Positions 7,195 through 24,992 are shown, counted from the stretch's first letter. The stretch: DNA of 64,000 nt from Polyangiaceae bacterium (GCA_019637295.1 JAHBVX010000011.1:17735-81734); one strand, 5' to 3'. Program-made: numbers and translations. The notes: generated from the letters alone by a model not told the origin.

Positions 7195-7324
7195 GCGGCG
7201 TCAGTGGCGTCTAGTCTGGCTCGTTATGACGGTCGGTCGAAAGCCGCCGCATCCCTCAGGCGTTTGCTGGACGTGGCCCGGACAAGCCCGTACGATCATC
7301 TACCGGGCTCTGGTCCCCCGTCCG

Positions 7325-7951: not shown

Positions 7952-7964
7952 GCGGCCTGGCGCG

Positions 7965-9014
7965 CTACCTCTTCGCCGGCGTGCGGGAGCGCCTCTTGGC
8001 GTAGCCCGCCAGGGCCTGCTCGAGTTCGTGCTGGACCCGCTCGACGAGCTCCGGCGGCTCGATGACCCGCGCCCGCGCTCCCCACTCGAGCACCCAGCTC
8101 GCGACGGGGTTGAGGTTGCCCACCGTCATCGTCAAGCGCACGCCGCCGCCGGCCACGGACGCCAGCTTCTGGGTCGCGTGCACCTTCCGCATGCGTACGT
8201 ACTCGGCGGCCTGGGCGTCGAAATCCACCACCACCTTGCGCTTCTTCTCGCTCTTCCACACCCCGAGCTCGCCCTGGAAGTACTCGCCCACGTCGAAGCT
8301 GGCGGGGAGCTCGAACCGCTCGGTGACGGAGCACTCGGTGTCGCGCATGCGGTCGAGGACGAACGTGCGGACTTCGCCCCGGGCGACGTGGTGACCGACG
8401 CAATAGATGGCATCCCGATGCAGCACCATCGCGTAGGGATGGAGCGTGATCCGCTCCTCCTGGGCGCGGCTGCTGCTGCGGTACGAGAGGGTGAGCGGGC
8501 GCAGATCGCTCACGGCCTGGAACAGGTCGTCGAGCTCCTCGGTCTTGTCGCCGTAGTTCTTGGGCGCGAAGGGCAGGTACAAGAAGCGGTCCTCGAGCCT
8601 GGCGTCCGCGAGCCCCGCGTTCGGCCCGCGGCCCGGGCGCTGCGCGAACGCGAGCAGCTTCTTGGTGGCCAGGTCGATCTCGTCGAACAGCGCCGAGCCT
8701 CGCATGGGCTCGAACAGCCGCCGAGCGGCGAGGATGGCATAGGCCTGGGTGCGCCTCAGCTCGACCTTGCGCGGGATCTCGCTCGCGCGGATGCGCCAGA
8801 GCAGCGCCCCGCCAGCGCGGGAGGGGGAGCTCTCGAGGTCCAGCTCCCGCTCCACCTCTTTGAGGTAGCGCCGCATCGTCCGGGGGCTGACCGAGATCGC
8901 GTCGGCCAGCTCGTACAGGGACACGCCCCTGGGGTGCTTGGTGAGCAGCTCGCGCAGTCGATCCAGGCGACGATGCTGCGTGAACCGACCTCGGGGCCGC
9001 CCAACCTTGGCCAT
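7965..9014 (-). CDS. WYL-domain transcriptional regulator (HTH + WYL + WCX, YafY/PafBC-like)
   Basis: Only the last 349 codons of the 1487-aa ORF 7965..12428 look real, starting at ATG 9014 (MAKVGRPRG...). HTH: VSLYELADAISVSPRTMRRYLKEVE. WYL core: ITLHPYAMVLHRDAIYCVGHHVARGEVRTFVLDRM. C-terminal WCX-like segment: VASWVLEWGARARVIEPPELVERV. Confidence 0.87.
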   Translation of the reverse strand: MAKVGRPRGRFTQHRRLDRLRELLTKHPRGVSLYELADAISVSPRTMRRYLKEVERELDLESSPSRAGGALLWRIRASEIPRKVELRRTQAYAILAARRLFEPMRGSALFDEIDLATKKLLAFAQRPGRGPNAGLADARLEDRFLYLPFAPKNYGDKTEELDDLFQAVSDLRPLTLSYRSSSRAQEERITLHPYAMVLHRDAIYCVGHHVARGEVRTFVLDRMRDTECSVTERFELPASFDVGEYFQGELGVWKSEKKRKVVVDFDAQAAEYVRMRKVHATQKLASVAGGGVRLTMTVGNLNPVASWVLEWGARARVIEPPELVERVQHELEQALAGYAKRRSRTPAKR

Positions 9015-9209
9015 CAGACGACTCGCTACGGTCGATCCCCGGCCCGAGTCAAGTCGGTGGGGCTCGGTGGCAAGGGCAGGCCCCCGAAGCTCCTTGAGGG
9101 CGCCCCGGTGGAGGTGTAGTCTTGATGGCGTGTGTGCTCGGGCCACCTTCCCTCGCGGACGGCTGGACGCCCACATGTGCGTGACGGCGGTCGCGCGGGA
9201 GCCTAGCCA
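9015..9209. promoter_or_regulatory. divergent intergenic region between the WYL regulator and the giant surface-protein cassette (presumed promoters/operator)
   Basis: 195-nt non-coding gap between two divergently oriented starts (9014 minus, 9210 plus). A GGGAG Shine-Dalgarno-like element sits about 9 nt before ATG 9210. No promoter hexamers could be assigned confidently. Confidence 0.35.
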
Positions 9210-12200
9210 ATGAACGAGAACCCATTCCTTCTCAGCCGGCTCGCAGCGCGTGCGGGCGCCGCAGCGTTGGTTGGTCTTGCCGCTCTTGCGGTAGCGGCGC
9301 GCCCCGCCTTGGCCCAGCCCTACGACTGCAACTCGCCCAACCCCGCGATGTGGCCGCCCCCGGCCAAGCCCTACTTCATGGTCGTGGTGGACACCTCGGG
9401 GAGCATGGCGGCGTGTACCAACCCACAGACGGCCTGGCCCCAGACCTGCGCGGACGTCGGCGGTGGCGTCAACAACTCGTGCGGCTGGCAGCCCTTGCGG
9501 GTGAACGACGCCAAGTGCGCGCTGCGGAACACCCTCTGGGCCTTCGCGGGCGAGGCGAACTTCGGGTTGGCGTCCTTCTCTCGCACCCTCACGGGCTGCC
9601 CCTCCGCGTGCAACTGGGGCCAGGTCTGGAACAGCACCTTCTGGTATCGCTACGCCTACAACGGCTGCGGCTTCGGGGGCACCGCCTGCGGCGGCGCCAA
9701 CATGCTGGTCGGCATGCAGCTGGATGCGACGCCGACGCCGCCCAGCAACGTCCCCTCCATGGTCGAGTACATGGATCACAACTGCGGCGACAACAAGGAG
9801 CTGTTCGCCTACGACGCCACGCCCATCGGCGCGTCGCTGCAGAACGTTCGGACCTATTTCCAGAGCGGGCTCCCCGGCTTCCCGTCGCCCCTCAACGCCC
9901 AAGATCCCGCCTGCCGCTCCCTGAACGTCATCCTGATGACGGACGGCGGCGAGACCTGCAGCGGTGACCCGGTCACCGCGGCTCAGCAGCTCTACACCGG
10001 CTTCACCAAGGACGGGATCTTCAGGCGCATTTACACTCACGTCATCGCCTTCAACGTGGATGCTCCAGCGGATCAAACCCTGCTGAACAACGTGCACAAG
10101 ATGGGCCAGTGCGGGACCACGACCGGGGCCTGCGCGAACGCCGTGAGCGCCATTCAGGCCAGCGACGAGGTGTCTCTGTCGCAGGCCTTCGCCACGATCA
10201 TCTCCGGCGCGGTGAAGCCGGAGACCTGCAACAACGCGGACGACAACTGCAACGGCTGCATCGACGAGGGCTACGCGCGGTACTGCAACGTGAAGCCCGC
10301 AGGGCAGTGCTGTACGTGGGGCAACCCGACGCAGCGCAACACCTGCCTGACGAACTACCAGAACTCGATCACGCCGAGCAACCCGCAGGGGAACGTGGCG
10401 CTCTTGCCGTGCACGACGGTGGCGCAGTCGCAGAACCCGGCGACGTGGCTGTGCTTCAACCCGGGCGAGCTGTGCGACGACGCGGACAACAACTGCAACG
10501 GGCAGACGGACGAGACCTTCAACAAGTGCGGCAACCCGCTGAAGTGCCCCGGTCCGGAGCTGTGCAACGGCGAGGACGACGACTGCGACGGCATCATCGA
10601 CAACGCGGCGGGCAGCGGCGTCCCCTACAGCGCGTGTCCCAACCAGTGCCAGCCGAGCGCGGAGATCTGCGACGGCTGCGACAACAACTGCAACGGGATC
10701 GCGGACGACGGGGTGGCGGACATCCCGTGCGGCTTCTCGCCGCCGGGCAACTGCGCGGGCGTGCGCACGTGCGTGAGCAAGGGGGTGGCGGTGCCGGTGG
10801 GCGGGTGCGTCGGGCCAACCGCGCCGAAGGGCTTCGGAGCGTGCTCGAACACGCCGCAGCCGGAGATCTGCGACGGGCTGGACAACAACTGTAACGGCAC
10901 GGTGGACGAGGGGATCGCGCCTGGGGCGTGCGAGATCCCTGGTCAGCCCGGGCTGAAGTACCAGGAAGACGGCTTCCCGCTGAGCCAGTGCAAGAAGGGG
11001 ATCTTGCCGTGCAACGGGACGTGCAGCGGTTGGACGGGACCGAGCGCGGAGATTTGCGACGGCATCGACAACGACTGCGACGGGATCGTGGACAACAACA
11101 TCCCGGGTCTGGGTCAGGAGTGCGGGCTGGCGACGGGCCAGTGCAGCAAGGGTCAGACGGCGTGCGTGGGCGGAGTGATCGTGTGCCAGGGCGGGACGCA
11201 GCCGCAGCCGGAGATCTGCGACGGCCTGGACAACGACTGCGACGGGACGACGGACAACGCGCCGATGGTGGACCAGCCGAGCAACCCGGGTTGCTGGAGC
11301 CTGCCGGCGACGGGGTGCAGTCCGACCTGCAGCCACCAGAACGTGTCGTGGTGTCCGCCGGCGGGCGGGACGTGCACGGGGACGGGTACGCTGAGCACGC
11401 CGTGCCAGACGGGTACGCTGGTGTGCGACGGAGCAAACCAGTGGAAGTGCCAGGGCGGAGTGGTGCCGACGGCGGAGGTGTGCGACGGGGTGGACAACAA
11501 CTGCAACAGCCAGGTGGACGAGAGCCTGGGCGCGCCGGTGGGCCAGTCCTGCGGGTCGAGCGTTGGGGAGTGCTCTCCGGGCGTGAACGTGTGCGTGAGC
11601 GGAGTGATCCAGTGCCAGGGCGGGCAAGGTCCGACGCCGGAGGTGTGTGACGGACTGGACAACGACTGCGATGGCGACATCGACAACGGCATCCCGCTGG
11701 GTGGGGCGTGCACGCCGGTGTACGACACGAACCTGTACCCCGGGGATCGGACGAAGGGCGTGTGCAAGCCGGGGGTGCTGGCGTGCGACGGGCAGGGCGG
11801 GACGGTGTGCGTTGGCGGCGTGGGCCCGAGCGCGGAGATCTGCGACGGAGTGGACAACGACTGCGACGGCCAGGTGGACGAGCCCGGGCCTGCCCCGGAC
11901 GGGATCAACGGGACGGAGGACCCGCTGCAGCCCGGGGTGAAGATCGGGGACGCTTGCGGGACGAGCGTTGGGGAGTGCAAGCCCGGGCAGTACGCCTGCG
12001 CGGGCGGGAAGTTCGTGTGCCTGGGCGGAGTGGGTCCGAACCCCGAGGTGTGCGACTGCCTGGACAACGACTGCGACGGCCAGGTGGACAACGAGCCGGC
12101 GGCGGGTTCGCTGTGCAGCACGGGCAAGACGTGTGTGGCGGTGGCTGGAGGGAACTGCCAGTGCGCGGAGCCGTGCGCGGGCGGAGAGTTCCCGTGCCCG

Positions 12201-13196
12201 ACGAGCTTCGAGTGCAAGAACGTGACGAAGAGCGGGACGGGTCAGGCCCTCGGTGACTACTGCGTGAACGACGGCTGCGGGGACTGCACGACGAAGACGG
12301 TGAAGGACCAGCAGACGGGGGTGACGCTGTGTGGTCCGGAGGGAACGGCGGGCAGCAAGCCCGAGTGCGTGTGCAAGGCGAACAAGTGCCAGCACCCGTG
12401 CGCGAACATCCAGTGCCCGACGGGTCAAGAGTGCGCGCTGCAGGGGTCGAGCGCTGGGACGTGCCAGCCGACGGGCAACTGCTTCTTCTTCGGCTGCGAC
12501 GCGGGCGAGGTGTGCAACGGCGGGGTGTGCGTGGCCGACCCGTGCACGCCGAACCCGTGCCAGGCGGACGAGGTGTGCAAGCCGAACGCGACCTTCAGCG
12601 AGCCACGCTGCGTGGGGTCGTGCGCGAGCGTGACGTGTCCGACTGGGCAGCAGTGCGTGGAGGGACAGTGCGAGGAGACGGGCTGCGCGCAGGGCTGCGC
12701 GCCGGGCGAGGTGTGCCAGCCCACGGGTGATGGCGGCTACGCTTGCGGCCCGAACCAGTGCGCGACGGACGCGGGTCAGCCGTGCAGCAACGGCGCGTGG
12801 TGCAACCCGGCGACGGGCGCGTGCGGCAACGAGCCCTGCGAGGGTGTGGTTTGCCCGGTCGCGCAGCTGTGCGCCGAGGGTCAGTGCATCTGGGCGCCCG
12901 AGGGCGGCGCGGGCACCGGCGGCAGCGGCACCGGCGGCAGCGGCACCGGCGGCAGCGGCACCGGCGGCGCCGGACCGGACGCGGGCCTGGGCGGCGGAAG
13001 TGGCGGAAACATCAGCGTTCCGACCACCGACCCCGAGCGCGGGGTCTGGGGCCTGGCCACCGGCGGCGGCGGCTGCGCCTGCCGCGCGGCCGGGACCGAC
13101 CGGCGCACGCCGCTCGGCGCGGCCTTGGCATTCGGCGCTCTGGCGGTCGCTCTTGGCTTCCGCCGGCGACGCCGAGGTGCTCTTCTAGGAGGCTGA
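9210..13196 (+). CDS. giant secreted surface protein, paralog A: VWA/MIDAS-like head, 11 CDGxDNDCDGxxDE metal-binding-type repeats, Cys-rich EGF-like stalk, (GTGGS)n linker, MYXO-CTERM
   Basis: 1328 aa with signal peptide ...LAALAVAARPALAQ. The head carries PYFMVVVDTSGSM (a DxSGS MIDAS motif) and NVILMTDGGETCSGD. The repeats include EICDGIDNDCDGIVDN and EVCDGLDNDCDGDIDNG. The C-terminus is GGGGCACRAAG...ALAVALGFRRRRRG. Confidence 0.9.
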   Translation: MNENPFLLSRLAARAGAAALVGLAALAVAARPALAQPYDCNSPNPAMWPPPAKPYFMVVVDTSGSMAACTNPQTAWPQTCADVGGGVNNSCGWQPLRVNDAKCALRNTLWAFAGEANFGLASFSRTLTGCPSACNWGQVWNSTFWYRYAYNGCGFGGTACGGANMLVGMQLDATPTPPSNVPSMVEYMDHNCGDNKELFAYDATPIGASLQNVRTYFQSGLPGFPSPLNAQDPACRSLNVILMTDGGETCSGDPVTAAQQLYTGFTKDGIFRRIYTHVIAFNVDAPADQTLLNNVHKMGQCGTTTGACANAVSAIQASDEVSLSQAFATIISGAVKPETCNNADDNCNGCIDEGYARYCNVKPAGQCCTWGNPTQRNTCLTNYQNSITPSNPQGNVALLPCTTVAQSQNPATWLCFNPGELCDDADNNCNGQTDETFNKCGNPLKCPGPELCNGEDDDCDGIIDNAAGSGVPYSACPNQCQPSAEICDGCDNNCNGIADDGVADIPCGFSPPGNCAGVRTCVSKGVAVPVGGCVGPTAPKGFGACSNTPQPEICDGLDNNCNGTVDEGIAPGACEIPGQPGLKYQEDGFPLSQCKKGILPCNGTCSGWTGPSAEICDGIDNDCDGIVDNNIPGLGQECGLATGQCSKGQTACVGGVIVCQGGTQPQPEICDGLDNDCDGTTDNAPMVDQPSNPGCWSLPATGCSPTCSHQNVSWCPPAGGTCTGTGTLSTPCQTGTLVCDGANQWKCQGGVVPTAEVCDGVDNNCNSQVDESLGAPVGQSCGSSVGECSPGVNVCVSGVIQCQGGQGPTPEVCDGLDNDCDGDIDNGIPLGGACTPVYDTNLYPGDRTKGVCKPGVLACDGQGGTVCVGGVGPSAEICDGVDNDCDGQVDEPGPAPDGINGTEDPLQPGVKIGDACGTSVGECKPGQYACAGGKFVCLGGVGPNPEVCDCLDNDCDGQVDNEPAAGSLCSTGKTCVAVAGGNCQCAEPCAGGEFPCPTSFECKNVTKSGTGQALGDYCVNDGCGDCTTKTVKDQQTGVTLCGPEGTAGSKPECVCKANKCQHPCANIQCPTGQECALQGSSAGTCQPTGNCFFFGCDAGEVCNGGVCVADPCTPNPCQADEVCKPNATFSEPRCVGSCASVTCPTGQQCVEGQCEETGCAQGCAPGEVCQPTGDGGYACGPNQCATDAGQPCSNGAWCNPATGACGNEPCEGVVCPVAQLCAEGQCIWAPEGGAGTGGSGTGGSGTGGSGTGGAGPDAGLGGGSGGNISVPTTDPERGVWGLATGGGGCACRAAGTDRRTPLGAALAFGALAVALGFRRRRRGALLGG
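10207..13177 (+). repeat. direct repeat copy 1 (about 2.97 kb, near-identical to 14367..17337)
   Basis: Line-by-line comparison at a constant 4160-nt offset. I saw substitutions only at 10226, 10268, 10271, 10314, 10466, 10637, 10640, 10644, 10646 and 13160. Alternate-frame ORFs in the track are identical between copies (for example 11153..12217 versus 15313..16377). Confidence 0.95.
12912..12968 (+). repeat. in-frame 15-nt tandem repeat ggcaccggcggcagc (about 3.8 units) encoding a (GTGGS)n linker
   Basis: Read directly: ggcaccggcggcagc x3, then ggcaccggcggcgcc. It translates to GTGGSGTGGSGTGGSGTGGA. Confidence 0.9.
13062..13196 (+). other. MYXO-CTERM-type sorting tag (tag 2 of 5)
   Basis: GGGGCACRAAGTDRRTPLGAALAFGALAVALGFRRRRRGALLGG-stop. 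Confidence 0.8.
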
Positions 13197-13216
13197 GGCT
13201 CTTTCTCGAACGGGAC

Positions 13217-16200
13217 ATGATGCAGAAGCACACAGTGCGAGCGACCAGTCGGCGCAGGCTCGGGTTCTGGGCGGCAGCAGCGGCCAGCGGGGTGGCAGCC
13301 TTGGCCCTGTGCAGCCCACGATCGGCCGCAGCGCAACCCTACGACTGCAACTCGCCCAACCCTGCGATGTGGCCGCCGCCGGCGAAGCCCTACTTCATGC
13401 TCCTGGTCGACACGTCGGGCAGCATGGTGGGGTGCACCAACCCCTCCACCTCGAACTACCAGTTTCCGAACTCGTGTCCCAGCACCGCGCCGCAGAACTC
13501 CTGCGGCATGGAGCCTACCCGCATCAACGACGCCAAGTGTGCGCTCCGGCAGACCGTGCAGGCGTTCGCCGGCGAGGTGAACTTCGGCCTGGCGACCTTC
13601 CCGGTCAACCTCGCGGGCTGCGGGAACGGAGCGTGCGTGGACACCTGCACGGCGGCCAGTGGCTCGTGCACGCTCTCCGGCGGCGTGGGTACCTCCGGCG
13701 AGTACCACGCCGGCAACGGCTGCTCGGTCACCGGCTACACGAACACGAGCGATGGCGCGAGCTGCGGCAACTTCCCGAGCTGCGGTCCCGCCGGTCCCGC
13801 CGCCCCCAACTTGGCCAAGGGCACCTGGCGCAACGGCGGCAAGATCGTGGTCGACATGCTGCGCGACACCACCCCCCCCGGAGCCAGCAACGTGGCCACC
13901 CTGCTCGAGTGGTTCGACGGCAACTGCAACAACAGCCGAGAGCTGTTCGCGATCGGGGGCACGCCCATCGGCGGGTCCCTGCGCACCATTCACCAGTACT
14001 TCCTCGCCGGTTGGAACTCCGGCTGGCACACGACGAACTACTGCGCCAGCGGGCTGTCCTACACGAGCCCCACCCCCATGGACCCCGCGGACCCGCAGTG
14101 CCGCAACTTGAACGTCATCCTGGTGACGGACGGCGACCCGAGCTGCGGAGACACCGTGGCCTCGTCCGTCAGCGCGGCGCAGGCGCTCTTCCAGCAGGGA
14201 GTCACCTTTGGGGGCAAGAACTTCCCCGTGCGGACCCACGTCATCAACTTCGCTGGTGGCGTCCAGTCCACCACGGACCAGATCGCGGCGGCGGGCGGCA
14301 CGGTGGCGTCACTCTCGGCCAACAACGAGGTCACCCTCGCGCAGGCGCTCTCGACGATCATCGCGAGCGCGGTGAAGCCGGAGACGTGCAACAACGCGGA
14401 CGACAACTGCAACGGCTGCATCGACGAAGGTTACGCGCGGTACTGCAACGTGAAGCCCGCAGGGCAGTGCTGTGCGTGGGGCAACCCGACGCAGCGCAAC
14501 ACCTGCCTGACGAACTACCAGAACTCGATCACGCCGAGCAACCCGCAGGGGAACGTGGCGCTCTTGCCGTGCACGACGGTGGCGCAGTCGCAGAACCCGG
14601 CGACGTGGCTGTGCTTCAACCCGGGGGAGCTGTGCGACGACGCGGACAACAACTGCAACGGGCAGACGGACGAGACCTTCAACAAGTGCGGCAACCCGCT
14701 GAAGTGCCCCGGTCCGGAGCTGTGCAACGGCGAGGACGACGACTGCGACGGCATCATCGACAACGCGGCGGGCAGCGGCGTCCCCTACAGCGCGTGCCCA
14801 AACAATTGCCAGCCGAGCGCGGAGATCTGCGACGGCTGCGACAACAACTGCAACGGGATCGCGGACGACGGGGTGGCGGACATCCCGTGCGGCTTCTCGC
14901 CGCCGGGCAACTGCGCGGGCGTGCGCACGTGCGTGAGCAAGGGGGTGGCGGTGCCGGTGGGCGGGTGCGTCGGGCCAACCGCGCCGAAGGGCTTCGGAGC
15001 GTGCTCGAACACGCCGCAGCCGGAGATCTGCGACGGGCTGGACAACAACTGTAACGGCACGGTGGACGAGGGGATCGCGCCTGGGGCGTGCGAGATCCCT
15101 GGTCAGCCCGGGCTGAAGTACCAGGAAGACGGCTTCCCGCTGAGCCAGTGCAAGAAGGGGATCTTGCCGTGCAACGGGACGTGCAGCGGTTGGACGGGAC
15201 CGAGCGCGGAGATTTGCGACGGCATCGACAACGACTGCGACGGGATCGTGGACAACAACATCCCGGGTCTGGGTCAGGAGTGCGGGCTGGCGACGGGCCA
15301 GTGCAGCAAGGGTCAGACGGCGTGCGTGGGCGGAGTGATCGTGTGCCAGGGCGGGACGCAGCCGCAGCCGGAGATCTGCGACGGCCTGGACAACGACTGC
15401 GACGGGACGACGGACAACGCGCCGATGGTGGACCAGCCGAGCAACCCGGGTTGCTGGAGCCTGCCGGCGACGGGGTGCAGTCCGACCTGCAGCCACCAGA
15501 ACGTGTCGTGGTGTCCGCCGGCGGGCGGGACGTGCACGGGGACGGGTACGCTGAGCACGCCGTGCCAGACGGGTACGCTGGTGTGCGACGGAGCAAACCA
15601 GTGGAAGTGCCAGGGCGGAGTGGTGCCGACGGCGGAGGTGTGCGACGGGGTGGACAACAACTGCAACAGCCAGGTGGACGAGAGCCTGGGCGCGCCGGTG
15701 GGCCAGTCCTGCGGGTCGAGCGTTGGGGAGTGCTCTCCGGGCGTGAACGTGTGCGTGAGCGGAGTGATCCAGTGCCAGGGCGGGCAAGGTCCGACGCCGG
15801 AGGTGTGTGACGGACTGGACAACGACTGCGATGGCGACATCGACAACGGCATCCCGCTGGGTGGGGCGTGCACGCCGGTGTACGACACGAACCTGTACCC
15901 CGGGGATCGGACGAAGGGCGTGTGCAAGCCGGGGGTGCTGGCGTGCGACGGGCAGGGCGGGACGGTGTGCGTTGGCGGCGTGGGCCCGAGCGCGGAGATC
16001 TGCGACGGAGTGGACAACGACTGCGACGGCCAGGTGGACGAGCCCGGGCCTGCCCCGGACGGGATCAACGGGACGGAGGACCCGCTGCAGCCCGGGGTGA
16101 AGATCGGGGACGCTTGCGGGACGAGCGTTGGGGAGTGCAAGCCCGGGCAGTACGCCTGCGCGGGCGGGAAGTTCGTGTGCCTGGGCGGAGTGGGTCCGAA

Positions 16201-17389
16201 CCCCGAGGTGTGCGACTGCCTGGACAACGACTGCGACGGCCAGGTGGACAACGAGCCGGCGGCGGGTTCGCTGTGCAGCACGGGCAAGACGTGTGTGGCG
16301 GTGGCTGGAGGGAACTGCCAGTGCGCGGAGCCGTGCGCGGGCGGAGAGTTCCCGTGCCCGACGAGCTTCGAGTGCAAGAACGTGACGAAGAGCGGGACGG
16401 GTCAGGCCCTCGGTGACTACTGCGTGAACGACGGCTGCGGGGACTGCACGACGAAGACGGTGAAGGACCAGCAGACGGGGGTGACGCTGTGTGGTCCGGA
16501 GGGAACGGCGGGCAGCAAGCCCGAGTGCGTGTGCAAGGCGAACAAGTGCCAGCACCCGTGCGCGAACATCCAGTGCCCGACGGGTCAAGAGTGCGCGCTG
16601 CAGGGGTCGAGCGCTGGGACGTGCCAGCCGACGGGCAACTGCTTCTTCTTCGGCTGCGACGCGGGCGAGGTGTGCAACGGCGGGGTGTGCGTGGCCGACC
16701 CGTGCACGCCGAACCCGTGCCAGGCGGACGAGGTGTGCAAGCCGAACGCGACCTTCAGCGAGCCACGCTGCGTGGGGTCGTGCGCGAGCGTGACGTGTCC
16801 GACTGGGCAGCAGTGCGTGGAGGGACAGTGCGAGGAGACGGGCTGCGCGCAGGGCTGCGCGCCGGGCGAGGTGTGCCAGCCCACGGGTGATGGCGGCTAC
16901 GCTTGCGGCCCGAACCAGTGCGCGACGGACGCGGGTCAGCCGTGCAGCAACGGCGCGTGGTGCAACCCGGCGACGGGCGCGTGCGGCAACGAGCCCTGCG
17001 AGGGTGTGGTTTGCCCGGTCGCGCAGCTGTGCGCCGAGGGTCAGTGCATCTGGGCGCCCGAGGGCGGCGCGGGCACCGGCGGCAGCGGCACCGGCGGCAG
17101 CGGCACCGGCGGCAGCGGCACCGGCGGCGCCGGACCGGACGCGGGCCTGGGCGGCGGAAGTGGCGGAAACATCAGCGTTCCGACCACCGACCCCGAGCGC
17201 GGGGTCTGGGGCCTGGCCACCGGCGGCGGCGGCTGCGCCTGCCGCGCGGCCGGGACCGACCGGCGCACGCCGCTCGGCGCGGCCTTGGCATTCGGCGCTC
17301 TGGCGGTCGCTCTTGGCTTGCGCCGGCGACGCCGAGGCCCCTCGAGAGACGAAACGGTCGACGGCATGACTGAAGGAGACGCGCGATGA
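13217..17389 (+). CDS. giant secreted surface protein, paralog B: divergent VWA/MIDAS-like head, with stalk and MYXO-CTERM almost identical to paralog A
   Basis: In-frame ATG at 13217 (MMQKHTVRATSRRRLGFWAAAAASGVAALALC...AAAQ) within ORF 12743..17389, giving 1390 aa. The head has PYFMLLVDTSGSM and NVILVTDGDPSCGD. From AVKPETCNNADDNCNG onward it matches paralog A. The C-terminus is GGGGCACRAAG...ALGLRRRRRG plus a 16-aa tail. Confidence 0.9.
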   Translation: MMQKHTVRATSRRRLGFWAAAAASGVAALALCSPRSAAAQPYDCNSPNPAMWPPPAKPYFMLLVDTSGSMVGCTNPSTSNYQFPNSCPSTAPQNSCGMEPTRINDAKCALRQTVQAFAGEVNFGLATFPVNLAGCGNGACVDTCTAASGSCTLSGGVGTSGEYHAGNGCSVTGYTNTSDGASCGNFPSCGPAGPAAPNLAKGTWRNGGKIVVDMLRDTTPPGASNVATLLEWFDGNCNNSRELFAIGGTPIGGSLRTIHQYFLAGWNSGWHTTNYCASGLSYTSPTPMDPADPQCRNLNVILVTDGDPSCGDTVASSVSAAQALFQQGVTFGGKNFPVRTHVINFAGGVQSTTDQIAAAGGTVASLSANNEVTLAQALSTIIASAVKPETCNNADDNCNGCIDEGYARYCNVKPAGQCCAWGNPTQRNTCLTNYQNSITPSNPQGNVALLPCTTVAQSQNPATWLCFNPGELCDDADNNCNGQTDETFNKCGNPLKCPGPELCNGEDDDCDGIIDNAAGSGVPYSACPNNCQPSAEICDGCDNNCNGIADDGVADIPCGFSPPGNCAGVRTCVSKGVAVPVGGCVGPTAPKGFGACSNTPQPEICDGLDNNCNGTVDEGIAPGACEIPGQPGLKYQEDGFPLSQCKKGILPCNGTCSGWTGPSAEICDGIDNDCDGIVDNNIPGLGQECGLATGQCSKGQTACVGGVIVCQGGTQPQPEICDGLDNDCDGTTDNAPMVDQPSNPGCWSLPATGCSPTCSHQNVSWCPPAGGTCTGTGTLSTPCQTGTLVCDGANQWKCQGGVVPTAEVCDGVDNNCNSQVDESLGAPVGQSCGSSVGECSPGVNVCVSGVIQCQGGQGPTPEVCDGLDNDCDGDIDNGIPLGGACTPVYDTNLYPGDRTKGVCKPGVLACDGQGGTVCVGGVGPSAEICDGVDNDCDGQVDEPGPAPDGINGTEDPLQPGVKIGDACGTSVGECKPGQYACAGGKFVCLGGVGPNPEVCDCLDNDCDGQVDNEPAAGSLCSTGKTCVAVAGGNCQCAEPCAGGEFPCPTSFECKNVTKSGTGQALGDYCVNDGCGDCTTKTVKDQQTGVTLCGPEGTAGSKPECVCKANKCQHPCANIQCPTGQECALQGSSAGTCQPTGNCFFFGCDAGEVCNGGVCVADPCTPNPCQADEVCKPNATFSEPRCVGSCASVTCPTGQQCVEGQCEETGCAQGCAPGEVCQPTGDGGYACGPNQCATDAGQPCSNGAWCNPATGACGNEPCEGVVCPVAQLCAEGQCIWAPEGGAGTGGSGTGGSGTGGSGTGGAGPDAGLGGGSGGNISVPTTDPERGVWGLATGGGGCACRAAGTDRRTPLGAALAFGALAVALGLRRRRRGPSRDETVDGMTEGDAR
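14367..17337 (+). repeat. direct repeat copy 2 (about 2.97 kb, near-identical to 10207..13177)
   Basis: Same comparison as copy 1. Identity begins at gcgcggtgaagccggagac and ends after gccgagg (17337). Confidence 0.95.
17072..17128 (+). repeat. same 15-nt tandem repeat in paralog B
   Basis: Identical sequence at a +4160 nt offset. Confidence 0.9.
17222..17389 (+). other. MYXO-CTERM-type sorting tag (tag 3 of 5) with an extra acidic tail
   Basis: GGGGCACRAAGTDRRTPLGAALAFGALAVALGLRRRRRGPSRDETVDGMTEGDAR-stop. Confidence 0.75.
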
Positions 17390-20300
17390 AGTGGCTAACA
17401 GCAGCCCTGGTCTCGAGTACGGTGCTCGCGTTGGCGGTAGCGCCGGCCTGCACGACCTCGAGCTTCTGCTTCGAGGATTGTGACGGTGACGGCGGCAAGG
17501 GGACCGGCGGCACAGGCGACGGAGGTCTGTGGGACGGCCAGGTCATCGACGGCGCGTCAGGCGACACGGGCGTCATCGGCATCGACACCGGCACGGGCGA
17601 CGCGTGCGTCGCGACGAACAACGGCGTCGAGATTTGTGATGGTATCGACAACGACTGCAACGGAGTCATCGACGACGGGTTCGACTTCACCAAGACCCAG
17701 AGCTGCGGCACCTGCGACAACAACTGCGCCCTGGGCGCGAGCGCCCCGGTGAACGTCGTGAACCCGAGCTGCGACCCACCGTCGACCACGGACGGCACCG
17801 TCGCGGGCACCTGCAAGTGGGAGAAGTGTGCCCAGGATTTCTACGATATCGACAAAGGCAAGCCGGGAGAGATCCTGGGCTGCGAGTATCAGTGCCCCTG
17901 GAACCCGGACGGTACGGTCACCGTGGACACCGGCGGGTCGGAGGGCTGCGGACGGGACGACGACTGCGACGGCTTGATCGACGAGGACCTGAACACCTGC
18001 GACGACATCGACAACTGCGGCAAGTGCGGCAAGCCCTGCGTCATCCCCAACGGGACGGCCAAGTGCACGACGACCGCGCAGCAGGGGCAGCAGTGTACCG
18101 AGGCCAACACCAAGTGCGAGATCGCGTCGTGTGACGCGGGCTACCACGACGCCGACAAGGCGGCGGGCAACGGCTGCGAGTACCAGTGCACACCCACCGG
18201 TCCCGAGATCTGCGACGGCATCGACAACGACTGCGACGGTAAGATCGACAACACCGACGACAGCCTCGAGGTCGACGACCCCAACGTCGGCCAGACCTGC
18301 CAGGGTGGGGTCAACGGCATCTGCGCCGACCCGGCCAACGCCGGCGTCAAGAAGTGCATCGGGGGCCAGATCAGCTGCTGCGACGTGGGCTCGAACAACG
18401 TCAGCTCCACCAACCCCAACCTGCCGGTCACCGGCCTCCGCAACGGCGTGTGTAGCGCTCCGACTGGCCCCAAGGTCATCAAGCCCGGGGACGTGCAGGA
18501 GACCTGCAACAACAAGGACGACGACTGCGACGGGGTCGTGGACGACTCACCCATCGACCAGGGCGGAACTTGTGGCAGCACCGTCGGCAGCTGCCAGGCC
18601 GGTACCCAGCAGTGTCAGAGTGGCGCGCTGGTGTGCGTGGGCAACACCGTTCCCGCTGCCGAAATCTGCAACGGCCAGGACAACAACTGCGACGGCGTGA
18701 TCGACGGCATCATGGTGACCCCGGTGGTCGCGTGCACCCAGGACGCGCAGTGTTCGGGCAGCGCCAGGTGCATGATCCGCTCGGGTCCCACGGACCGCGT
18801 GTGTGCGCTGCGGCCCACGGACGTGGGCACCACCTGCGACACCTTCCCACCGCCGCCCGCGGGTTACACCTCGCCCTGCCAGGCGGGCACGCTGGCCTGC
18901 GTGGGTGGCGTGAAGGTGTGTCAGGGCTCGATCAAGCCGAACGCCGTCTCCGACACCTGCGGCCAGGACACCAACTGCAACGGCGTGTACGAGGGACCGA
19001 CGCCGCAGCAGATGCAGACGGACGTCAAGAACTGCGGGAGTTGCGGCAACGACTGCGGCCAGATCTCGCCCGGCGGCCACGGCGTGTGGGCGTGTCAGGC
19101 CGGCCAGTGCGTGCGCACCGGCTGCGAGGCGAACTACATCAACTGCGACGGCAACAACAACGACTGCGAGCGCTTCTGCACCTTCGTGTCGGCGAACGAG
19201 CAGTGCAACGGCATCGACGACAACTGCAACTGCCAGGTGGACGAGAACATCACCGCCGTGCCCAGCCCGGTGTCCGTCTGCGGCGTCGCGGCGGCCGCGA
19301 ATGATCCTGGGTGCCTGCCCCGCCACCCCACGACCAACCCCACGGGTGTACAGGTCAGCTGCAACAACGGCGGTTGGCAGTGCTCGTTCACCAGCGGGTA
19401 CTGCTCGGGCAGTCCGCCGGACTGCTCCACCACCGTGGACACCTGCGACAACAAGGACAACAACTGCAACGGCGCCACGGACGAGAGCTTCAAGCCTCCG
19501 ATCTTGAATCAAGGTTACGTGGGCCAACAGTGCGCGAGCGACGACGGCCTCCCCGCGCCCGGCCACGGTCAGTGCCGGACTCAGGGACAGTTCGTGTGCA
19601 CGAGCGCTACCACGACCGGGTGCAACGCTACGAAGAACAACGCCGCCGCGGGCACGGAGCTGTGCGACGGAGTGGACAACGACTGCGACGGCCTAGTGGA
19701 CGAGCCCTTCACCAACAAGGGCACCAACACCACGCACTTCGTGCGGCCCGCGGTGACTCAGCTCGCGACCAACCTGTGGATGACGCAGTACGAGGTCAGC
19801 CGCCCGGGGGCCACCAACGTCAATCCGGGTAACGGCAACGGCTACCAGACCGCGGCACCGACGGGCGTCACGCTGGACCGGGTGCAGGGCTGCTCGGTCG
19901 CGGGTGTCATCCCCTGGTTCAACGTCACGCCGGTCGAGGCTCAACAGGTCTGCGCGGCGCGCGGAGGCCGGTTGTGCTCCACCGGGGAGTGGCAGACCGC
20001 GTGCCGGACGCCCAGCAACGCCTGCACCTGGGGCTACAACCCGCGCACGGGCTCTCCGGCTCCATGTACGCTGGCTGGGACGTATACAGCGGGCACGGGC
20101 CGAGTGTGCAACATCGGGCCCTTCGACTTCGACGGCAACCCGGTCAACGGAGTCACCAACGGCCTGTTGCCGACGGCGTCGGCGTCGCTGCAAAACTGCT
20201 GGGCGGACTGGGCCGGCAGCACCGGCAACACGGCGGCGTTCAACAACATCCGCGACATCACCGGCAACCTCGGCGAGATCGTCCAACACTCGGGCACGAA

Positions 20301-20469
20301 CTGCGGCGCCGTGAACAACACCTGCGTCTACAAGGTGATGGGTGGTGGGTTCAACACGGCGGCGGAGAGCGGCGCGACCTGCAACTTCACGTTCTACAGC
20401 GTCGACAAGGACTTCAAGCTCTACGACGCCGGCTTCCGCTGCTGCTTCACCAGCAACCCGACCCTCTGA
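17386..20469 (+). CDS. Cys-rich probable lipoprotein with about 10 CDGxDNDCDG-type repeats and a C-terminal FGE/SUMF1-like (C-type-lectin fold) domain
   Basis: 1027 aa. ATG 17386 overlaps the paralog B stop as ATGA. N-terminus MKWLTAALVSSTVLALAVAPAC. Repeats include EICDGIDNDCNGVIDDG, EICDGIDNDCDGKIDN and ELCDGVDNDCDGLVDEP. The last roughly 250 aa are FGE-sulfatase-like (LWMTQYEVSRPGA, VPWFNVTPVEAQQVCAARGGRLCSTGEWQTAC, ITGNLGEIV, GGGFN, DAGFRCCF). Confidence 0.85.
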   Translation: MKWLTAALVSSTVLALAVAPACTTSSFCFEDCDGDGGKGTGGTGDGGLWDGQVIDGASGDTGVIGIDTGTGDACVATNNGVEICDGIDNDCNGVIDDGFDFTKTQSCGTCDNNCALGASAPVNVVNPSCDPPSTTDGTVAGTCKWEKCAQDFYDIDKGKPGEILGCEYQCPWNPDGTVTVDTGGSEGCGRDDDCDGLIDEDLNTCDDIDNCGKCGKPCVIPNGTAKCTTTAQQGQQCTEANTKCEIASCDAGYHDADKAAGNGCEYQCTPTGPEICDGIDNDCDGKIDNTDDSLEVDDPNVGQTCQGGVNGICADPANAGVKKCIGGQISCCDVGSNNVSSTNPNLPVTGLRNGVCSAPTGPKVIKPGDVQETCNNKDDDCDGVVDDSPIDQGGTCGSTVGSCQAGTQQCQSGALVCVGNTVPAAEICNGQDNNCDGVIDGIMVTPVVACTQDAQCSGSARCMIRSGPTDRVCALRPTDVGTTCDTFPPPPAGYTSPCQAGTLACVGGVKVCQGSIKPNAVSDTCGQDTNCNGVYEGPTPQQMQTDVKNCGSCGNDCGQISPGGHGVWACQAGQCVRTGCEANYINCDGNNNDCERFCTFVSANEQCNGIDDNCNCQVDENITAVPSPVSVCGVAAAANDPGCLPRHPTTNPTGVQVSCNNGGWQCSFTSGYCSGSPPDCSTTVDTCDNKDNNCNGATDESFKPPILNQGYVGQQCASDDGLPAPGHGQCRTQGQFVCTSATTTGCNATKNNAAAGTELCDGVDNDCDGLVDEPFTNKGTNTTHFVRPAVTQLATNLWMTQYEVSRPGATNVNPGNGNGYQTAAPTGVTLDRVQGCSVAGVIPWFNVTPVEAQQVCAARGGRLCSTGEWQTACRTPSNACTWGYNPRTGSPAPCTLAGTYTAGTGRVCNIGPFDFDGNPVNGVTNGLLPTASASLQNCWADWAGSTGNTAAFNNIRDITGNLGEIVQHSGTNCGAVNNTCVYKVMGGGFNTAAESGATCNFTFYSVDKDFKLYDAGFRCCFTSNPTL

Positions 20470-20533
20470 CCCGATCGGGTCGAGCCTGCGGCACGAGTCC
20501 GGGGGGTTTCGCTCCCCGGCTCGCTCGGGCACC

Positions 20534-21568
20534 ATGGCGAGGATGTCGAAGCCGCGGAGGTCCGGATACCGGGTGCTGGCCCCAAAGGAGGTCCGCTCGG
20601 ACGACCGCGAGCTCGCGTACGAGGTGTTGGTGGGGCTGTCCGAGCACCCCAAGCGCTTACCGTCGCGGCTCTTCTATGACGACGAGGGTAGCCGACTGTT
20701 TCAGCGCATCATGGCGCTCGGCGAGTACTACCTGACGGACTGCGAGCGCGAGATCCTGGAAGCACACAAGGGAGACCTGGCGGACGTGGTCGCGGCCGAG
20801 CCCGTCAACGTGGTCGATCTCGGCGCCGGCGACGGAGAGAAGACCTTCATCCTGCTCGACCACCTGGGCAAGCGCAGCATCGAGCATCGCTACGTACCCA
20901 TCGACATCTCCGAGGGAGCGATGAGTGCGCTGGTGGAGCGCGTGACGGCGCGGCTGCCGCACCTGGACGTCGAGGGCATCATCGCGGAGTACTCGGATGG
21001 CCTCGAGGCGCTGGCCCAGGCCGAGTCCAGCCGTCGCAACTTGGTGCTGTTCTTGGGGTCCAACATCGGCAACTTCGATCGTGCCCGATCGCGCGCGTTC
21101 TTGCGCCGGCTGTGGAACGCGCTGAACCCCGGCGACTTGCTGCTGATCGGCTTCGATCTGAAGAAGGACATCGACCTGTTGCTCCGCGCGTACAACGACC
21201 GCGAGGGCGTGACCGCCGCGTTCAATCTGAACCTGCTCACGCGCCTGAACCGAACTCTGGGAGCGCAGTTCGACATCGACAAGTTTCGACACTTCGGCAC
21301 CTACGACGTGTTCAGCGGTGCCATGCAGAGCTATCTGGTGAGCCTCGAGCGCCAGTTGATCGAGATCAGCCAGCTGTCGCTGGCGTTCCAGTTCGAGCCT
21401 TGGGAGCCCATTCACACCGAGTACTCGTACAAGTACCTGCGCTCGGACGTGACCACCCTGGCCAAGGACACGGGTTTCTCGATCCAGGCGGAGTTCTTGG
21501 ATGACAAGCGCTGGTTTCTCGACTCGCTCTGGCGGGTGGAGAAGGCGCCCACGGCGATGCCGAGCTAG
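20534..21568 (+). CDS. EgtD-family SAM-dependent (histidine N-alpha-type) methyltransferase
   Basis: In-frame ATG at 20534 within ORF 20342..21568, giving 344 aa. Family motifs seen: LPSRLFYDDEGSRLFQRIMALGEYYLTDCEREIL, VDLGAGDGEKT, YVPIDISEGAM, FLGSNIGNF and IHTEYSYKY. Confidence 0.82.
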   Translation: MARMSKPRRSGYRVLAPKEVRSDDRELAYEVLVGLSEHPKRLPSRLFYDDEGSRLFQRIMALGEYYLTDCEREILEAHKGDLADVVAAEPVNVVDLGAGDGEKTFILLDHLGKRSIEHRYVPIDISEGAMSALVERVTARLPHLDVEGIIAEYSDGLEALAQAESSRRNLVLFLGSNIGNFDRARSRAFLRRLWNALNPGDLLLIGFDLKKDIDLLLRAYNDREGVTAAFNLNLLTRLNRTLGAQFDIDKFRHFGTYDVFSGAMQSYLVSLERQLIEISQLSLAFQFEPWEPIHTEYSYKYLRSDVTTLAKDTGFSIQAEFLDDKRWFLDSLWRVEKAPTAMPS

Positions 21569-21673
21569 TCGAGCCTCGGAGTACGGGCTTGCCGGTCCGA
21601 CGCGGCGGCGGTGAGGGGCGAATTCGGGCCGATCCTGGGCTCCCTTGGCCGCCATCGCTGCTAGGCTCGGCCA

Positions 21674-23473
21674 ATGGCACGGAAACTCGGCTCGGTTCTC
21701 GCGGCATCTTGCCTGACTCTGCTCGCTGGCAGCGCCAGCGCCCAGCAGCTTCGCTTCACCAAGACGACCACCGGAGGGCTCGCGGTCACCGGCAACACCC
21801 TCGGGCTCAGCAAGGCGCTCGACCAGAACGGCCCTGGCACGCGGGACTCCATCGGGACCTTCATCGCGCTCGATCCCACCAGCGTGGACAACGTCCCGCT
21901 GAGCTCATCCAACCCCTGGCCCGCGGGCACCACCTGGGACTGGACCAAGAACGGCTCGACCAACACGCTGTCCCTGCCTGCCGGCGCCACGGTCGAGTAC
22001 GCCGAGCTGATCTGGGCTGGGAGCTATCAGTACGTGACCGACGTCAGCGCGCACCTGGGCACAGCGGTGACGCTACGCGCGGGCGGCGCGTCGGTGTCGG
22101 TCCCCCCGAGCACTGCCACCGCGCTGACCATCGCCCAGCAGTCCACCACCGGGTTCTTCGCGAACTACTACATGCGCTCGGCGGATGTGACCAGCTTCGT
22201 CGCGTCTCAGGGAGCCGGGGCCTACACCGTCTCCGGCGTGCCCGCGACGGAGGACACCACCATCAACAGCCTCAACGCCGCGGGTTGGACGTTGGTCGTC
22301 GCCTACACCGCGAGCGCGTCGCCCGCGCGCAACATCAGCATCTTCGTGGGCGGCAGCTTCGTGGACGAGAACTCGCAGCAGGACTACACCTTCAGCGGCT
22401 TCTGCACTCCACCCGCTGGGCCGGTGGAGGGGACCGCGATCGTCACCGCCCTGGAGGGCGACGCGAACCTGACCGGGGATCAGCTGCTGATCGGCCAGAC
22501 CACCGGCGGCAGCTTCGTGAACCTCTCGGCCCCGAACAACCCGGCGAACAATTTCTTCGCGTCACAGATCAACGGAGCGAGCGGCCAGCTGGACACTGGC
22601 GGCAGCTTCGGCACCGTGAATCACGACGCCGCGGGCGGCGTGAACGTGTCCGGCGCTCGGCAGGGTTGGGACTTGACCACGGTGCAGCTCAGCTCTGCGG
22701 ACGGCAAGCTCGCCAACGGCCAGACGAGCGCCGTGCTGCGCAACATCACCACCGGTGACTCCTACGTGCCGGTGCTCGGCGCGTTCACCATCGACGTGAC
22801 CGCTCCCGACTTCTCCGACGGATCGTCGCTCCTCACCAGCACCCAAGTGGTCACGGACGGCGATACGTTCACCGTCACCGCGGTGATCAAGAACTCTGGC
22901 GACGTCCCCGCGGACATCGAGTTCGTGATGCCGCTCGACTCGGGCCTCTCGCTGGCGGGCTACACCACCGACGGCAACAGCGGTGACATCGGCGGTCAAG
23001 CGGTCAGCGGCGGGATGCTCTCCACGGGCGTCGCCGCCGGGACGATCGCCTCCGGCCAGTCGCGCACGGTGGTGCTCACCCTCGACGTCGTCGGGCCGCC
23101 CGCGACGGGCTCGGACTTCCCGGTGGAGGTATCCTGGAACTACAGCTACGTCAGCTGCGTCGGCCAGCCGGCGATCAGCGCGGTGTGGCCCATGCCGTCC
23201 GCCACGGTGAGCTACGAAGCAGCGGCTCCGGACGCGGGGGCTGGCGGCGCCGGCAACGCGGGCGGCGCCGGCGGCAGCGCCGGCGCGGGTGCGAGCGCGG
23301 CCAGCGGCGGCGCCGCCGCCACCGGCGGCGGCGGCAAGGGCGTCCCCGACTCGGGTGACGACGGCAGCTGCGCGTGCAGCGCGCCCGGCGCGGGTCGCTC
23401 GACCGGCGCGTCGCTCCTGGCAGGCTTGGGGATGTTGCTCGGCCTGTGGCGCACGCGCCGTCGTCGCGGGTGA
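21674..23473 (+). CDS. secreted surface protein with a DUF11-like repeat domain and MYXO-CTERM tag
   Basis: 599 aa with signal peptide MARKLGSVLAASCLTLLAGSASAQ. It has a DUF11-like segment (VTDGDTFTVTAVIKNSGDVPADIEFVMPLDSGLSL), an Ala/Gly-rich linker and the C-terminus DDGSCACSAPG...LLGLWRTRRRRG. Confidence 0.8.
   Translation: MARKLGSVLAASCLTLLAGSASAQQLRFTKTTTGGLAVTGNTLGLSKALDQNGPGTRDSIGTFIALDPTSVDNVPLSSSNPWPAGTTWDWTKNGSTNTLSLPAGATVEYAELIWAGSYQYVTDVSAHLGTAVTLRAGGASVSVPPSTATALTIAQQSTTGFFANYYMRSADVTSFVASQGAGAYTVSGVPATEDTTINSLNAAGWTLVVAYTASASPARNISIFVGGSFVDENSQQDYTFSGFCTPPAGPVEGTAIVTALEGDANLTGDQLLIGQTTGGSFVNLSAPNNPANNFFASQINGASGQLDTGGSFGTVNHDAAGGVNVSGARQGWDLTTVQLSSADGKLANGQTSAVLRNITTGDSYVPVLGAFTIDVTAPDFSDGSSLLTSTQVVTDGDTFTVTAVIKNSGDVPADIEFVMPLDSGLSLAGYTTDGNSGDIGGQAVSGGMLSTGVAAGTIASGQSRTVVLTLDVVGPPATGSDFPVEVSWNYSYVSCVGQPAISAVWPMPSATVSYEAAAPDAGAGGAGNAGGAGGSAGAGASAASGGAAATGGGGKGVPDSGDDGSCACSAPGAGRSTGASLLAGLGMLLGLWRTRRRRG
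23357..23473 (+). other. MYXO-CTERM-type sorting tag (tag 4 of 5)
   Basis: DDGSCACSAPGAGRSTGASLLAGLGMLLGLWRTRRRRG-stop. Confidence 0.8.
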
Positions 23474-23537
23474 GCGGCAGTCGCTCGGCGAGGCCTGCGC
23501 CTGTCCGAGGCGAGGGTAGCTGAGCCCGAGCGTCCGC

Positions 23538-24854: not shown

Positions 24855-24925
24855 GGCGACGCGAGCTTAGCCCGACTCGCCGGGAGCACCCAGACCCGAC
24901 CCGCCGCCGCCGCGCCGGGCCGGCA

Positions 24926-24978
24926 GCACAAAACACGAAGGCCCGAGCCTGTCGGCCCCCCGGGCACCCGAAGGTGCC
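24926..24978 (-). terminator. candidate intrinsic terminator downstream of the metalloprotease gene
   Basis: On the minus strand after the stop at 24993-24995 there is a perfect GGCACC-TTCG-GGTGCC hairpin (24963-24978). A second, imperfect hairpin follows (24940-24957, 6 bp with one bulge) and is followed by TTCGTGTTTTGTG. Confidence 0.35.
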
Positions 24979-24992
24979 GGACGTTGCGCTAC

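Follow-up and report, generated by a model that had tools for sequence, protein, structure and literature searches.

The subject of this work is a run of genes in a 64-kb stretch of DNA from a Polyangiaceae bacterium (G+C about 69%; 'the window' below), and above all three large, cysteine-rich proteins that the run encodes. Two of them, here called giants A and B, carry a von Willebrand factor A (VWA) head on a long stalk, and the third is a lipoprotein ending in a domain of the formylglycine-generating enzyme (FGE) fold. Together they form a conserved, so far undescribed myxobacterial surface-protein module, its display at the cell surface being putative. The five plus-strand proteins of the run match, exactly or with at least 90% identity, the products tagged KF718_27970 to KF718_27990 in a Polyangiaceae bacterium metagenome-assembled genome (MAG), the annotation of which calls both giants and the lipoprotein 'hypothetical protein'. 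The flanks are of a housekeeping kind, with gltX, a CPBP/Rce1-like protease gene, speA, deoA and hisD. A preliminary description of this DNA, made from the sequence alone, had listed seven open reading frames (ORFs) here, and all seven lie at the coordinates that it gave. Their G+C content at third codon positions (GC3) is 0.85-0.91, which is of coding type and typical for genes of this genome. The junctions had also been placed correctly, namely the 195-nucleotide (nt) spacer in front of giant A, the 20-nt gap between the giants (13197-13216) and the ATGA overlap between giant B and the lipoprotein gene (17386-17389). All features are collected in Table 1.

Table 1. Genes, repeats and fusion ORFs discussed in the text (positions are those of the window unless another locus is named)
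Feature	Position	Strand	Remarks
Giant A, 1328 aa	9210-13196	+	Sec signal peptide, type A VWA/MIDAS head, MopE stalk, Gly/Ser linker, MYXO-CTERM tail
Giant B, 1390 aa	13217-17389	+	Layout as giant A, type B VWA head
Stalk DNA repeat, copy 1	10192-13182	+	In giant A
Stalk DNA repeat, copy 2	14352-17342	+	In giant B, 4160 nt downstream of copy 1
Partner lipoprotein, 1027 aa	17386-20469	+	Signal peptide, Cys22, MopE stalk, C-terminal FGE/C-type-lectin-fold domain
Divergent intergenic region, 195 nt	9015-9209		Between WYL gene and giant A; presumably both promoters
HTH_11-WYL-WCX regulator	7965-9014	-	Context, outside the module; Polyangiaceae core gene
EgtD-type L-histidine N-alpha-methyltransferase	20534-21568	+	Context, lineage-specific addition
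599-aa secreted MYXO-CTERM protein, fold unassigned	21674-23473	+	Context, lineage-specific addition
Thymidine phosphorylase deoA	23538-24854	-	Context; far boundary of the variable slot
VWA head-MopE stalk-FGE-like fusion, L129	9923-14887		Single ORF
VWA head-MopE stalk-FGE-like fusion, L138	9881-18781		Single ORF
VWA head-MopE stalk-FGE-like fusion, L153 (= L154)	9908-16672		Single ORF

The head of giant A covers approximately residues 36-338 (nt 9315-10223) and is followed by a stalk of about 950 residues with 11 MopE-type CxGxDNDCDG motifs and a Cys content of 9.5%. Giant B likewise has 11 such motifs (Cys 9.3%), and its head is about 52% identical to head A, with some 50 extra residues in Cys-rich inserts. 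Pfam finds PF11617 (MopE) repeats in both giants and in the lipoprotein. Counting with a regular expression gives 11 + 11 + 9 = 31 motifs over the three proteins; the 'about 32' metal-binding-type repeats reported before were of the right type and their number was slightly too high. The heads have no Pfam VWA match at E<=0.01, and NCBIfam and a sequence search of the PDB return no VWA match either. What revealed the fold was an AlphaFold prediction based on an alignment of 11 sequences, with a predicted local distance difference test score (pLDDT) of 82.6 and a predicted template modelling score (pTM) of 0.86. Foldseek finds 134 PDB matches to this model at E<=0.001, and all of the 50 listed are VWA proteins, including BatB (1e-7), TFIIH p44, factor B and, from pilus adhesins, SpaC, PilB and LapA vWFA, with target-normalised TM-scores of about 0.7. 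The residues of the MIDAS (metal-ion-dependent adhesion site), DTSGS, T169 and T209-D210-G211, are invariant or nearly so in the alignment, being degenerate only in the sequence P0010. The model, its structural matches and the conserved DxSxS...T...D pattern therefore bear out the label 'VWA-headed', though Pfam is silent.

Both giants, and the 599-residue protein further along the run, end in a visible tripartite tail of Cys, hydrophobic helix and Arg cluster (in the giants GGGGCAC...AALAFGALAVALG...RRRRR). The MYXO-CTERM model TIGR03901 gives 19.6 bits for A, 19.1 for B and 20.9 for the 599-residue protein, with a curated cutoff of 20. Signal peptides, tails and head model together support giants that are secreted and probably held by a lipid anchor, with a stalk rich in Cys and Asp and a VWA head that bears a MIDAS. 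As to the size of the family, a word-indexed search for homologues of head A yielded just 11 proteins, a good many of which were incomplete or had frameshifts, and pattern scans of genome and metagenome contigs were far more informative. A head profile run against 1.84 billion representatives matched 347 clusters at E<=1e-30, a rough size estimate only, as the profile included the first MopE repeats and the count is inflated. A possible processing enzyme is encoded between gltX and speA: the order gltX-CPBP-speA is kept in many relatives, and the CPBP/Rce1-like intramembrane protease (1486-2472, plus strand) scores best in NCBIfam with the archaeomyxosortase MrtA, at 84 bits where the cutoff is 200. 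It is a candidate for the myxosortase that would process the window's four MYXO-CTERM proteins.

The stalk of the lipoprotein has nine MopE-type motifs and 8.9% Cys. Its last 287 residues (about 741-1027; nt 19606-20469) make up the FGE-fold domain, which has GFRCC at its C-terminal end. The Pfam FGE-sulfatase model reaches only a sub-threshold 16.2 bits, but the term 'FGE-like' used in the preliminary description holds on other grounds. Homologues of the C-terminal part grade into MopE+PF03781 proteins; a 41-sequence family profile matches CalU17, pFGE and FGE at about 1e-7 (pFGE and FGE at 3e-7 to 5e-7); and a model of the domain (pLDDT 83.7) is matched by Foldseek to FGE 5nyy at 2.9e-5 with a TM-score of about 0.4. 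FGE entries dominate the fold matches, which further include EgtB and the non-enzymatic binding proteins Mtd, TvpA, PvdO and PorK. Between GGGF and GFRCC there is a single Cys (...ESGATCNFTFYSVDKDFKLYDAGFRCC), as in the family consensus, where catalytic FGE has two, the copper-binding CxxxxC pair Cys336 and Cys341 of human FGE (numbered as in the names of the PDB entries for the C336S and C341S mutants). Since only a lone Cys occupies the copper site, and since the best sequence matches, CalU17 and pFGE, are non-catalytic, the domain is read as a binding module and not as an FGE, in other words as a probable non-catalytic binding surface. The region 20200-20469 has no further copy of more than 40 nt within the window, as a template repeat of a diversity-generating retroelement would be; no search was aimed at a reverse transcriptase.

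What is conserved between species, and recurs in Myxococcota metagenomes, is the pair of one or more VWA-stalk-MYXO-CTERM giants and a MopE-stalk FGE-like lipoprotein. A metagenome scan with the head profile gave 74 loci, 40 with at least 1.5 kb of DNA upstream and 20 with at least 9 kb downstream. In 16 of the latter 20 an FGE-like domain is encoded on the strand of the head, 15 times downstream and once upstream, and the pairing holds to head identities of 25-30%. The 4-nt overlap of the giant stop and the lipoprotein start, present in the window, recurs in all five cassette loci inspected (L012, L014, L016, L017 and L073). Three organisms (L129, L138 and L153/L154) even encode head and FGE-like domain together, in one unbroken frame of 1645-2790 codons (Table 1). 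The fusion of L138 continues for about 160 residues beyond the FGE-like domain. The pair is also found with no WYL gene nearby, as in L007, L008, L095, L096, L103, L116, L137 and others. A comparison of synteny, suggested with the preliminary description and carried out here, has thus given a divided answer: the link between giant and lipoprotein is conserved, whereas co-occurrence with the WYL regulator is found in a minority of loci. Likewise, of the proposed 'candidate undescribed surface system' the three-gene module stands, being conserved and unannotated, and the membership of the WYL regulator, the EgtD enzyme and the 599-residue protein does not, as these are not conserved with it. Co-occurrence, translational coupling and fusions support the link of giant and lipoprotein and give a concrete, testable hypothesis.

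Giants A and B are tandem paralogues with a shared stalk, which had escaped the preliminary description. At an offset of 4160 nt their stalk DNA is 99.2% identical over 3021 nt; the two repeat copies have 17 mismatches in 2990 nt, the 2513 nt from 10647 to 13159 are free of mismatches, and the stalk proteins are 100% identical. A pair of giants is present in L017 and L012 as well, MAGs from two other species, where the stalk DNA is 98.9% and 94.8% identical, respectively, within the genome. Between genomes, stalk DNA identity is 71-80%, and stalk proteins of different species are 71% identical. The heads behave in the opposite way. Heads A and B of one genome share only 50-52% of their residues, whereas head A of the window is 83% identical to head A of L017, and head B is 66% identical to its counterpart in L017 and 61% to that in L012. 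As the heads are orthologous across species and distinct within a genome, the duplication is older than speciation, and the stalks have been repeatedly homogenised by gene conversion. The stalks are under concerted evolution while A- and B-type heads persist as distinct lineages, and the locus is a clean natural case of mosaic evolution in one gene pair, with homogenised stalks and distinct ancient heads. An exact identity of 2513 nt may raise the suspicion of an assembly artefact, the more so as short-read contigs of the same species all break exactly at the start of the repeat. We give this a very small probability: sequence is unique in the heads, in the flanks and at the 17 mismatches along the edges of the repeat, and L017 and L012 are independent MAGs, each with two giants, its own homogenised stalks and orthologous A and B heads, layouts that speak against an artefact.

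Spurious antisense ORFs with identical translations are found in both giants of L012 (3562-4128 and 7692-8258) and of L017 (1910-2443 and 6081-6614), and are a quick marker for homogenised stalks. The second giant of L012 has frame disruptions, with 21 stops in a one-frame translation, which are probably assembly errors or signs of a pseudogene.

The reading that we favour, with somewhat more than even confidence, is that the coupled giant and lipoprotein are the two subunits of a metal-dependent surface adhesin or receptor, and that the WYL regulator, EgtD and the 599-residue protein are mere positional neighbours. Both chains would cross the inner membrane by the Sec route. The MYXO-CTERM of the giant would then be lipidated, cleaved by a myxosortase-type CPBP protease and shown on the outer surface in the manner of TraA, for which this sorting route and outer-surface display have been demonstrated (TraA/MrtX work, PMC11980579), and the lipoprotein would be anchored through its N-terminal Cys. 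Rigid, disulphide-bonded and probably Ca-binding stalks would keep both heads off the membrane. The MIDAS site would bind an acidic ligand residue via a divalent cation, and the FGE-fold domain, devoid of the copper Cys pair, would serve as a second binding surface and not as an enzyme. The two chains may act jointly as a heterodimer, possibly with their stalks side by side as in an integrin alpha/beta pair, for which the coupling of the genes and the natural fusions are indirect support. Giants A and B would represent two old head specificities on a common stalk that gene conversion keeps identical. A bolder version, which we regard as doubtful, would make the module a bacterial integrin analogue, with a MYXO-CTERM MIDAS/VWA chain and an N-lipidated FGE/C-type-lectin-fold chain paired along their parallel MopE stalks, exchangeable VWA subunits (of type A, type B and others) competing for one partner, and selection maintaining the conversion of the stalks so that each head fits.

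Several points weigh against a two-subunit adhesin or receptor. Giants A and B have borderline MYXO-CTERM scores, barely below the curated cutoff; the TM-score of the FGE-fold match is low; and only one motif speaks for a loss of catalysis. The fusions are devoid of an internal MYXO-CTERM, and the topology proposed for two chains need not match theirs. The identity of the stalks could merely follow from recombination between tandem repeats and be functionally meaningless. Finally, the adjacency of WYL gene and giant is kept down to 47% WYL identity, in at least 20 loci over two scans, and a regulatory link between them is possible.

The last point leads to the claim that the WYL regulator belongs to the surface system. 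The protein itself was correctly described as an HTH-WYL-WCX regulator (HTH_11 6e-7, WYL 2e-17, WCX 9e-17), as was the secreted lytic transglycosylase encoded beyond it, with SLT and DUF4124 domains. That it is a dedicated switch, acting through the 195-nt region on an 11-14 kb system that includes the giants, EgtD and a fifth MYXO-CTERM protein, seems to us unlikely. The divergent layout and the short spacer are in favour, as is the finding that in 11 species genomes, two looked-up loci and at least nine metagenome loci a WYL orthologue lies upstream of a VWA giant at a distance of 266-440 nt, with WYL identities of 47-100%. A WYL-anchored scan with one genome per species, however, shows how general the regulator is. 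It retrieved 80 loci, all from Polyangiaceae, Sorangium or Minicystis, and every one of these genomes has an orthologue of about 64-88% identity; in a large protein collection the orthologue group has more than 1000 members. The divergent neighbour could be scored in the 74 loci with enough upstream DNA: it is deoA, within 400 nt, in 38, a VWA giant in 11, other DNA followed by deoA in five (e.g. the pst operon in L033) and neither in 20. The SLT gene on the other side is almost always kept. More than 80% of the orthologue-bearing genomes have the regulator and no cassette, with deoA or inserts such as the pst operon or metG beside it. Seen from the cassette, nine of the 40 head-anchored loci that reach 1.5 kb or more upstream have a WYL orthologue and the other 31 have none. 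SLT and/or deoA are where one would expect them in every WYL-linked cassette, and as these cassettes all sit in the same SLT-WYL-...-deoA synteny, one vertically inherited chromosomal site explains the adjacency. The 19 WYL-giant intergenic regions have no conserved block (no 8-mer is common to more than five, a crude method and no proof against an operator), and the corresponding loci of other species are all devoid of EgtD and the 599-residue protein. The WYL gene belongs to the conserved core, and next to it is a variable slot that giants fill in a minority of lineages; local co-regulation through the 195-nt spacer is possible but finds no support here. The remaining alternatives concern the function of the proteins. 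A copper-dependent or metal-scavenging system, in which the lipoprotein would be an active copper oxidase working on Cys residues of the giants or of further surface proteins, or the MopE repeats would capture copper, has to our minds a slightly lower probability again. MopE scavenges copper in methanotrophs and PF11617 is named for this copper-binding protein; FGE is a copper enzyme and its entries are the most frequent fold matches; and proteins of about 480 residues with MopE and PF03781 are common in Myxococcota. The lipoprotein nevertheless has one Cys where catalytic FGE has two, its best profile matches, CalU17 and pFGE, are non-catalytic, and the fold occurs in pure binding proteins, the four named above. 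The DNDCDG motif, too, appears to resemble the Ca-binding loops of thrombospondin or LDL-A type.

The layout of the giants, with head, Cys-rich stalk and MYXO-CTERM, is that of TraA, and since several head types exist and a separate TraAB-like pair lies next door (4539-7194), one may ask if the module is a polymorphic kin-recognition receptor with VWA heads as allele-specific homotypic surfaces. This we hold to be improbable. The head is a VWA domain and not PA14-like, the repeat is MopE and not TIGR04201, and the partner is an FGE-like lipoprotein and not an OmpA-type TraB. Head A is moreover better conserved across species (83%) than the stalk (71%), the opposite of what a hypervariable domain would show, and among 11 contigs with an identical WYL protein the five listed that reach giant A have a 100% identical head A. 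Least probable, with next to no weight in our view, is an ergothioneine-type pathway in which the FGE-like domain would serve EgtD as its EgtB-like sulfoxide synthase. The methyltransferase was rightly assigned to the EgtD family, passing the equivalog cutoff of TIGR03438 (304.5 bits against 290.9; Methyltransf_33 3e-100), its gene lies 64 nt from that of the lipoprotein, and EgtB, itself one of the fold matches, contains a domain of FGE fold. But the FGE-like domain is the end of a secreted lipoprotein with 8.9% Cys and no DinB domain; a GC-rich hairpin (about 20484-20530; z = -1.9 against shuffles, which is marginal) separates the two genes; and no related cassette has an EgtD gene, deoA coming directly after the lipoprotein gene in at least nine cassette-bearing loci. 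No EgtB-like gene (DinB plus FGE-like) was met among the 24 window ORFs scanned, a scan that was not exhaustive. The comparative data effectively refute this pathway, and the position of EgtD beside an FGE-fold domain is a coincidence. Without comparative evidence, neither a regulator in divergent position nor a neighbouring enzyme of related fold, such as EgtD beside the FGE-like domain, should be taken as part of a system.

To return to the favoured two-subunit adhesin or receptor, it can be set beside what is known of other myxobacterial proteins. The social behaviour, gliding and predation of myxobacteria rest on few characterised surface proteins, such as TraA, CglB and CglD, and dozens more MYXO-CTERM proteins per genome have no assigned role. 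The gene pair is an undescribed yet recognisable variant of the stalked VWA surface proteins of myxobacteria; a full-text literature search, of incomplete coverage, found no description of it. The closest in type is CglD, the beta-integrin-like gliding adhesin of Myxococcus xanthus (bioRxiv 10.1101/2023.10.19.562135). Compared by description, CglD and the giants have in common a length of about 1100-1400 residues, a lipid anchor and surface exposure (both predicted for the giants), a VWA domain carrying a DxSxS...T...D MIDAS, a disulphide-bonded Cys-rich stalk and Asp-rich repeats of Ca type. CglD is, however, lipidated at its N-terminus and has the VWA domain within its C-terminal half; its repeats are COMP-like (DxDxDG) and its Cys content is 4.1%, whereas the giants have an N-terminal VWA domain, a C-terminal MYXO-CTERM, PF11617 repeats, 9.5% Cys and an FGE-like lipoprotein partner. 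CglB is a stalkless, N-terminally lipidated protein of about 400 residues and belongs to Glt, the gliding machinery. The window ORFs that were scanned include no glt gene. The likeness to CglB, an outer-membrane lipoprotein adhesin of M. xanthus (PMC9946355), is that of one Cys-rich myxobacterial VWA/MIDAS protein to another. With TraA/TraB (PMC3325183, PMC11980579) the module has in common the head, the Cys-rich stalk, the MYXO-CTERM (borderline by score in the giants) with its presumed myxosortase sorting, and a partner, co-transcribed in the case of TraA. TraA itself has a PA14-like hypervariable head, TIGR04201 repeats and the OmpA-domain partner TraB. The giants have a conserved VWA head, MopE repeats and an FGE-fold lipoprotein partner, NCBIfam finds no TIGR04201 match in A, B or the lipoprotein, and the giants are not TraA proteins by these features.

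A VWA domain meets a non-catalytic FGE/C-type-lectin-fold domain, fused or adjacent, in the vWA-FGS systems as well, which are cytoplasmic and go with MoxR AAA+ ATPases and in many cases with diversity-generating retroelements. Such vWA-FGS (FGE-fold) fusions occur in ternary conflict systems of the MoxR-vWA type (Kaur et al., eLife 2020, PMC7159879). The proteins of the present module differ in being secreted and disulphide-rich, with no MoxR among the ORFs scanned and no template repeat in the window. The WYL regulator has the HTH-WYL-WCX architecture in common with PafBC, YafY, DriD and BrxR-CapW. The defence-related regulators of this kind differ from it in their surroundings: PADLOC finds no defence system among its neighbours (the regulator matches generic WYL models, EgtD gives a weak methyltransferase match, and the giants, the lipoprotein, the SLT protein and the 599-residue protein give none), and its conserved partners are deoA and the SLT transglycosylase.

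The slot between WYL and deoA deserves a few words of its own. In many species the start codons of the two genes are only tens of nucleotides apart (e.g. L023 near 9940-10001), and the spacers of one subclade have a conserved GCGTACTACTTT-type block. The arrangement suggests that the ancestral target of the regulator may be deoA or the WYL gene itself. The cargo of the slot differs by species and includes a pstSCAB-like operon and metG (L033 1173-9896; L050 7874-9925; L070, L074 and L093), so that the slot looks like a hot spot of recombination or insertion. In a neighbour-joining tree of WYL proteins the cassette-bearing genomes fall into at least five clusters, which fits an old insertion with repeated loss, a single-gene tree being unable to choose between that and repeated gains. 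In the window deoA is convergent with the run, while in most cassette-bearing relatives it is co-directional and directly follows the lipoprotein gene; it is also inverted relative to this common layout in L011. Rfam gives no match over 7000-25000. A scan for sigma-70 promoters returned none and one for intrinsic terminators only a chance level of hits, and these scans are uninformative.

EgtD and the 599-residue protein stand next to the module in this lineage only, and their inclusion in the system fails on this account. Neither has a tblastn match in about 150 related loci of other species, and the order lipoprotein-EgtD-600-residue protein-deoA is confined to near-identical sister strains. 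The 599-residue protein is, as had been said, another MYXO-CTERM protein, its score being above the cutoff. The label 'DUF11-like' finds no support, since PF01345 fails to match even at E<=10 and there is only a weak hint of an Ig-like fold; its homologue in a near-identical sister strain has only a weak DUF3344 match. The segment 20001-22000, which contains the orphan EgtD gene, has a G+C content of 0.657, slightly under most of the window.

Other neighbours may be mentioned briefly. The TraAB-like pair lies on the minus strand just beyond the SLT gene. Its first member (5995-7194), 399 residues long, carries a signal peptide, an N-terminal domain some 230 residues in length, a TIGR04201 Myxo_Cys_RPT match (26.2 bits, cutoff 25) and a MYXO-CTERM tail; its gene has no tblastn match in the loci of other species. 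The second, 16 nt downstream (4539-5978), is an OmpA-domain protein of 479 residues whose best NCBIfam match is TraB, with 171 bits against a cutoff of 700. Beyond deoA, a minus-strand ORF of 1605 residues (24993-29810; GC3 0.93) has no Pfam or NCBIfam match; it has a relative of 47% identity in L047 and another, of 1574 residues, beside deoA and hisD in the sister strain L168. Downstream of hisD, also on the minus strand, are genes for a SUKH-1/SMI1_KNR4 protein (31241-31912), a family whose members are often immunity proteins, and for a Ser/Thr kinase of 927 residues with AAA_16 and TPR domains (33018-35801).

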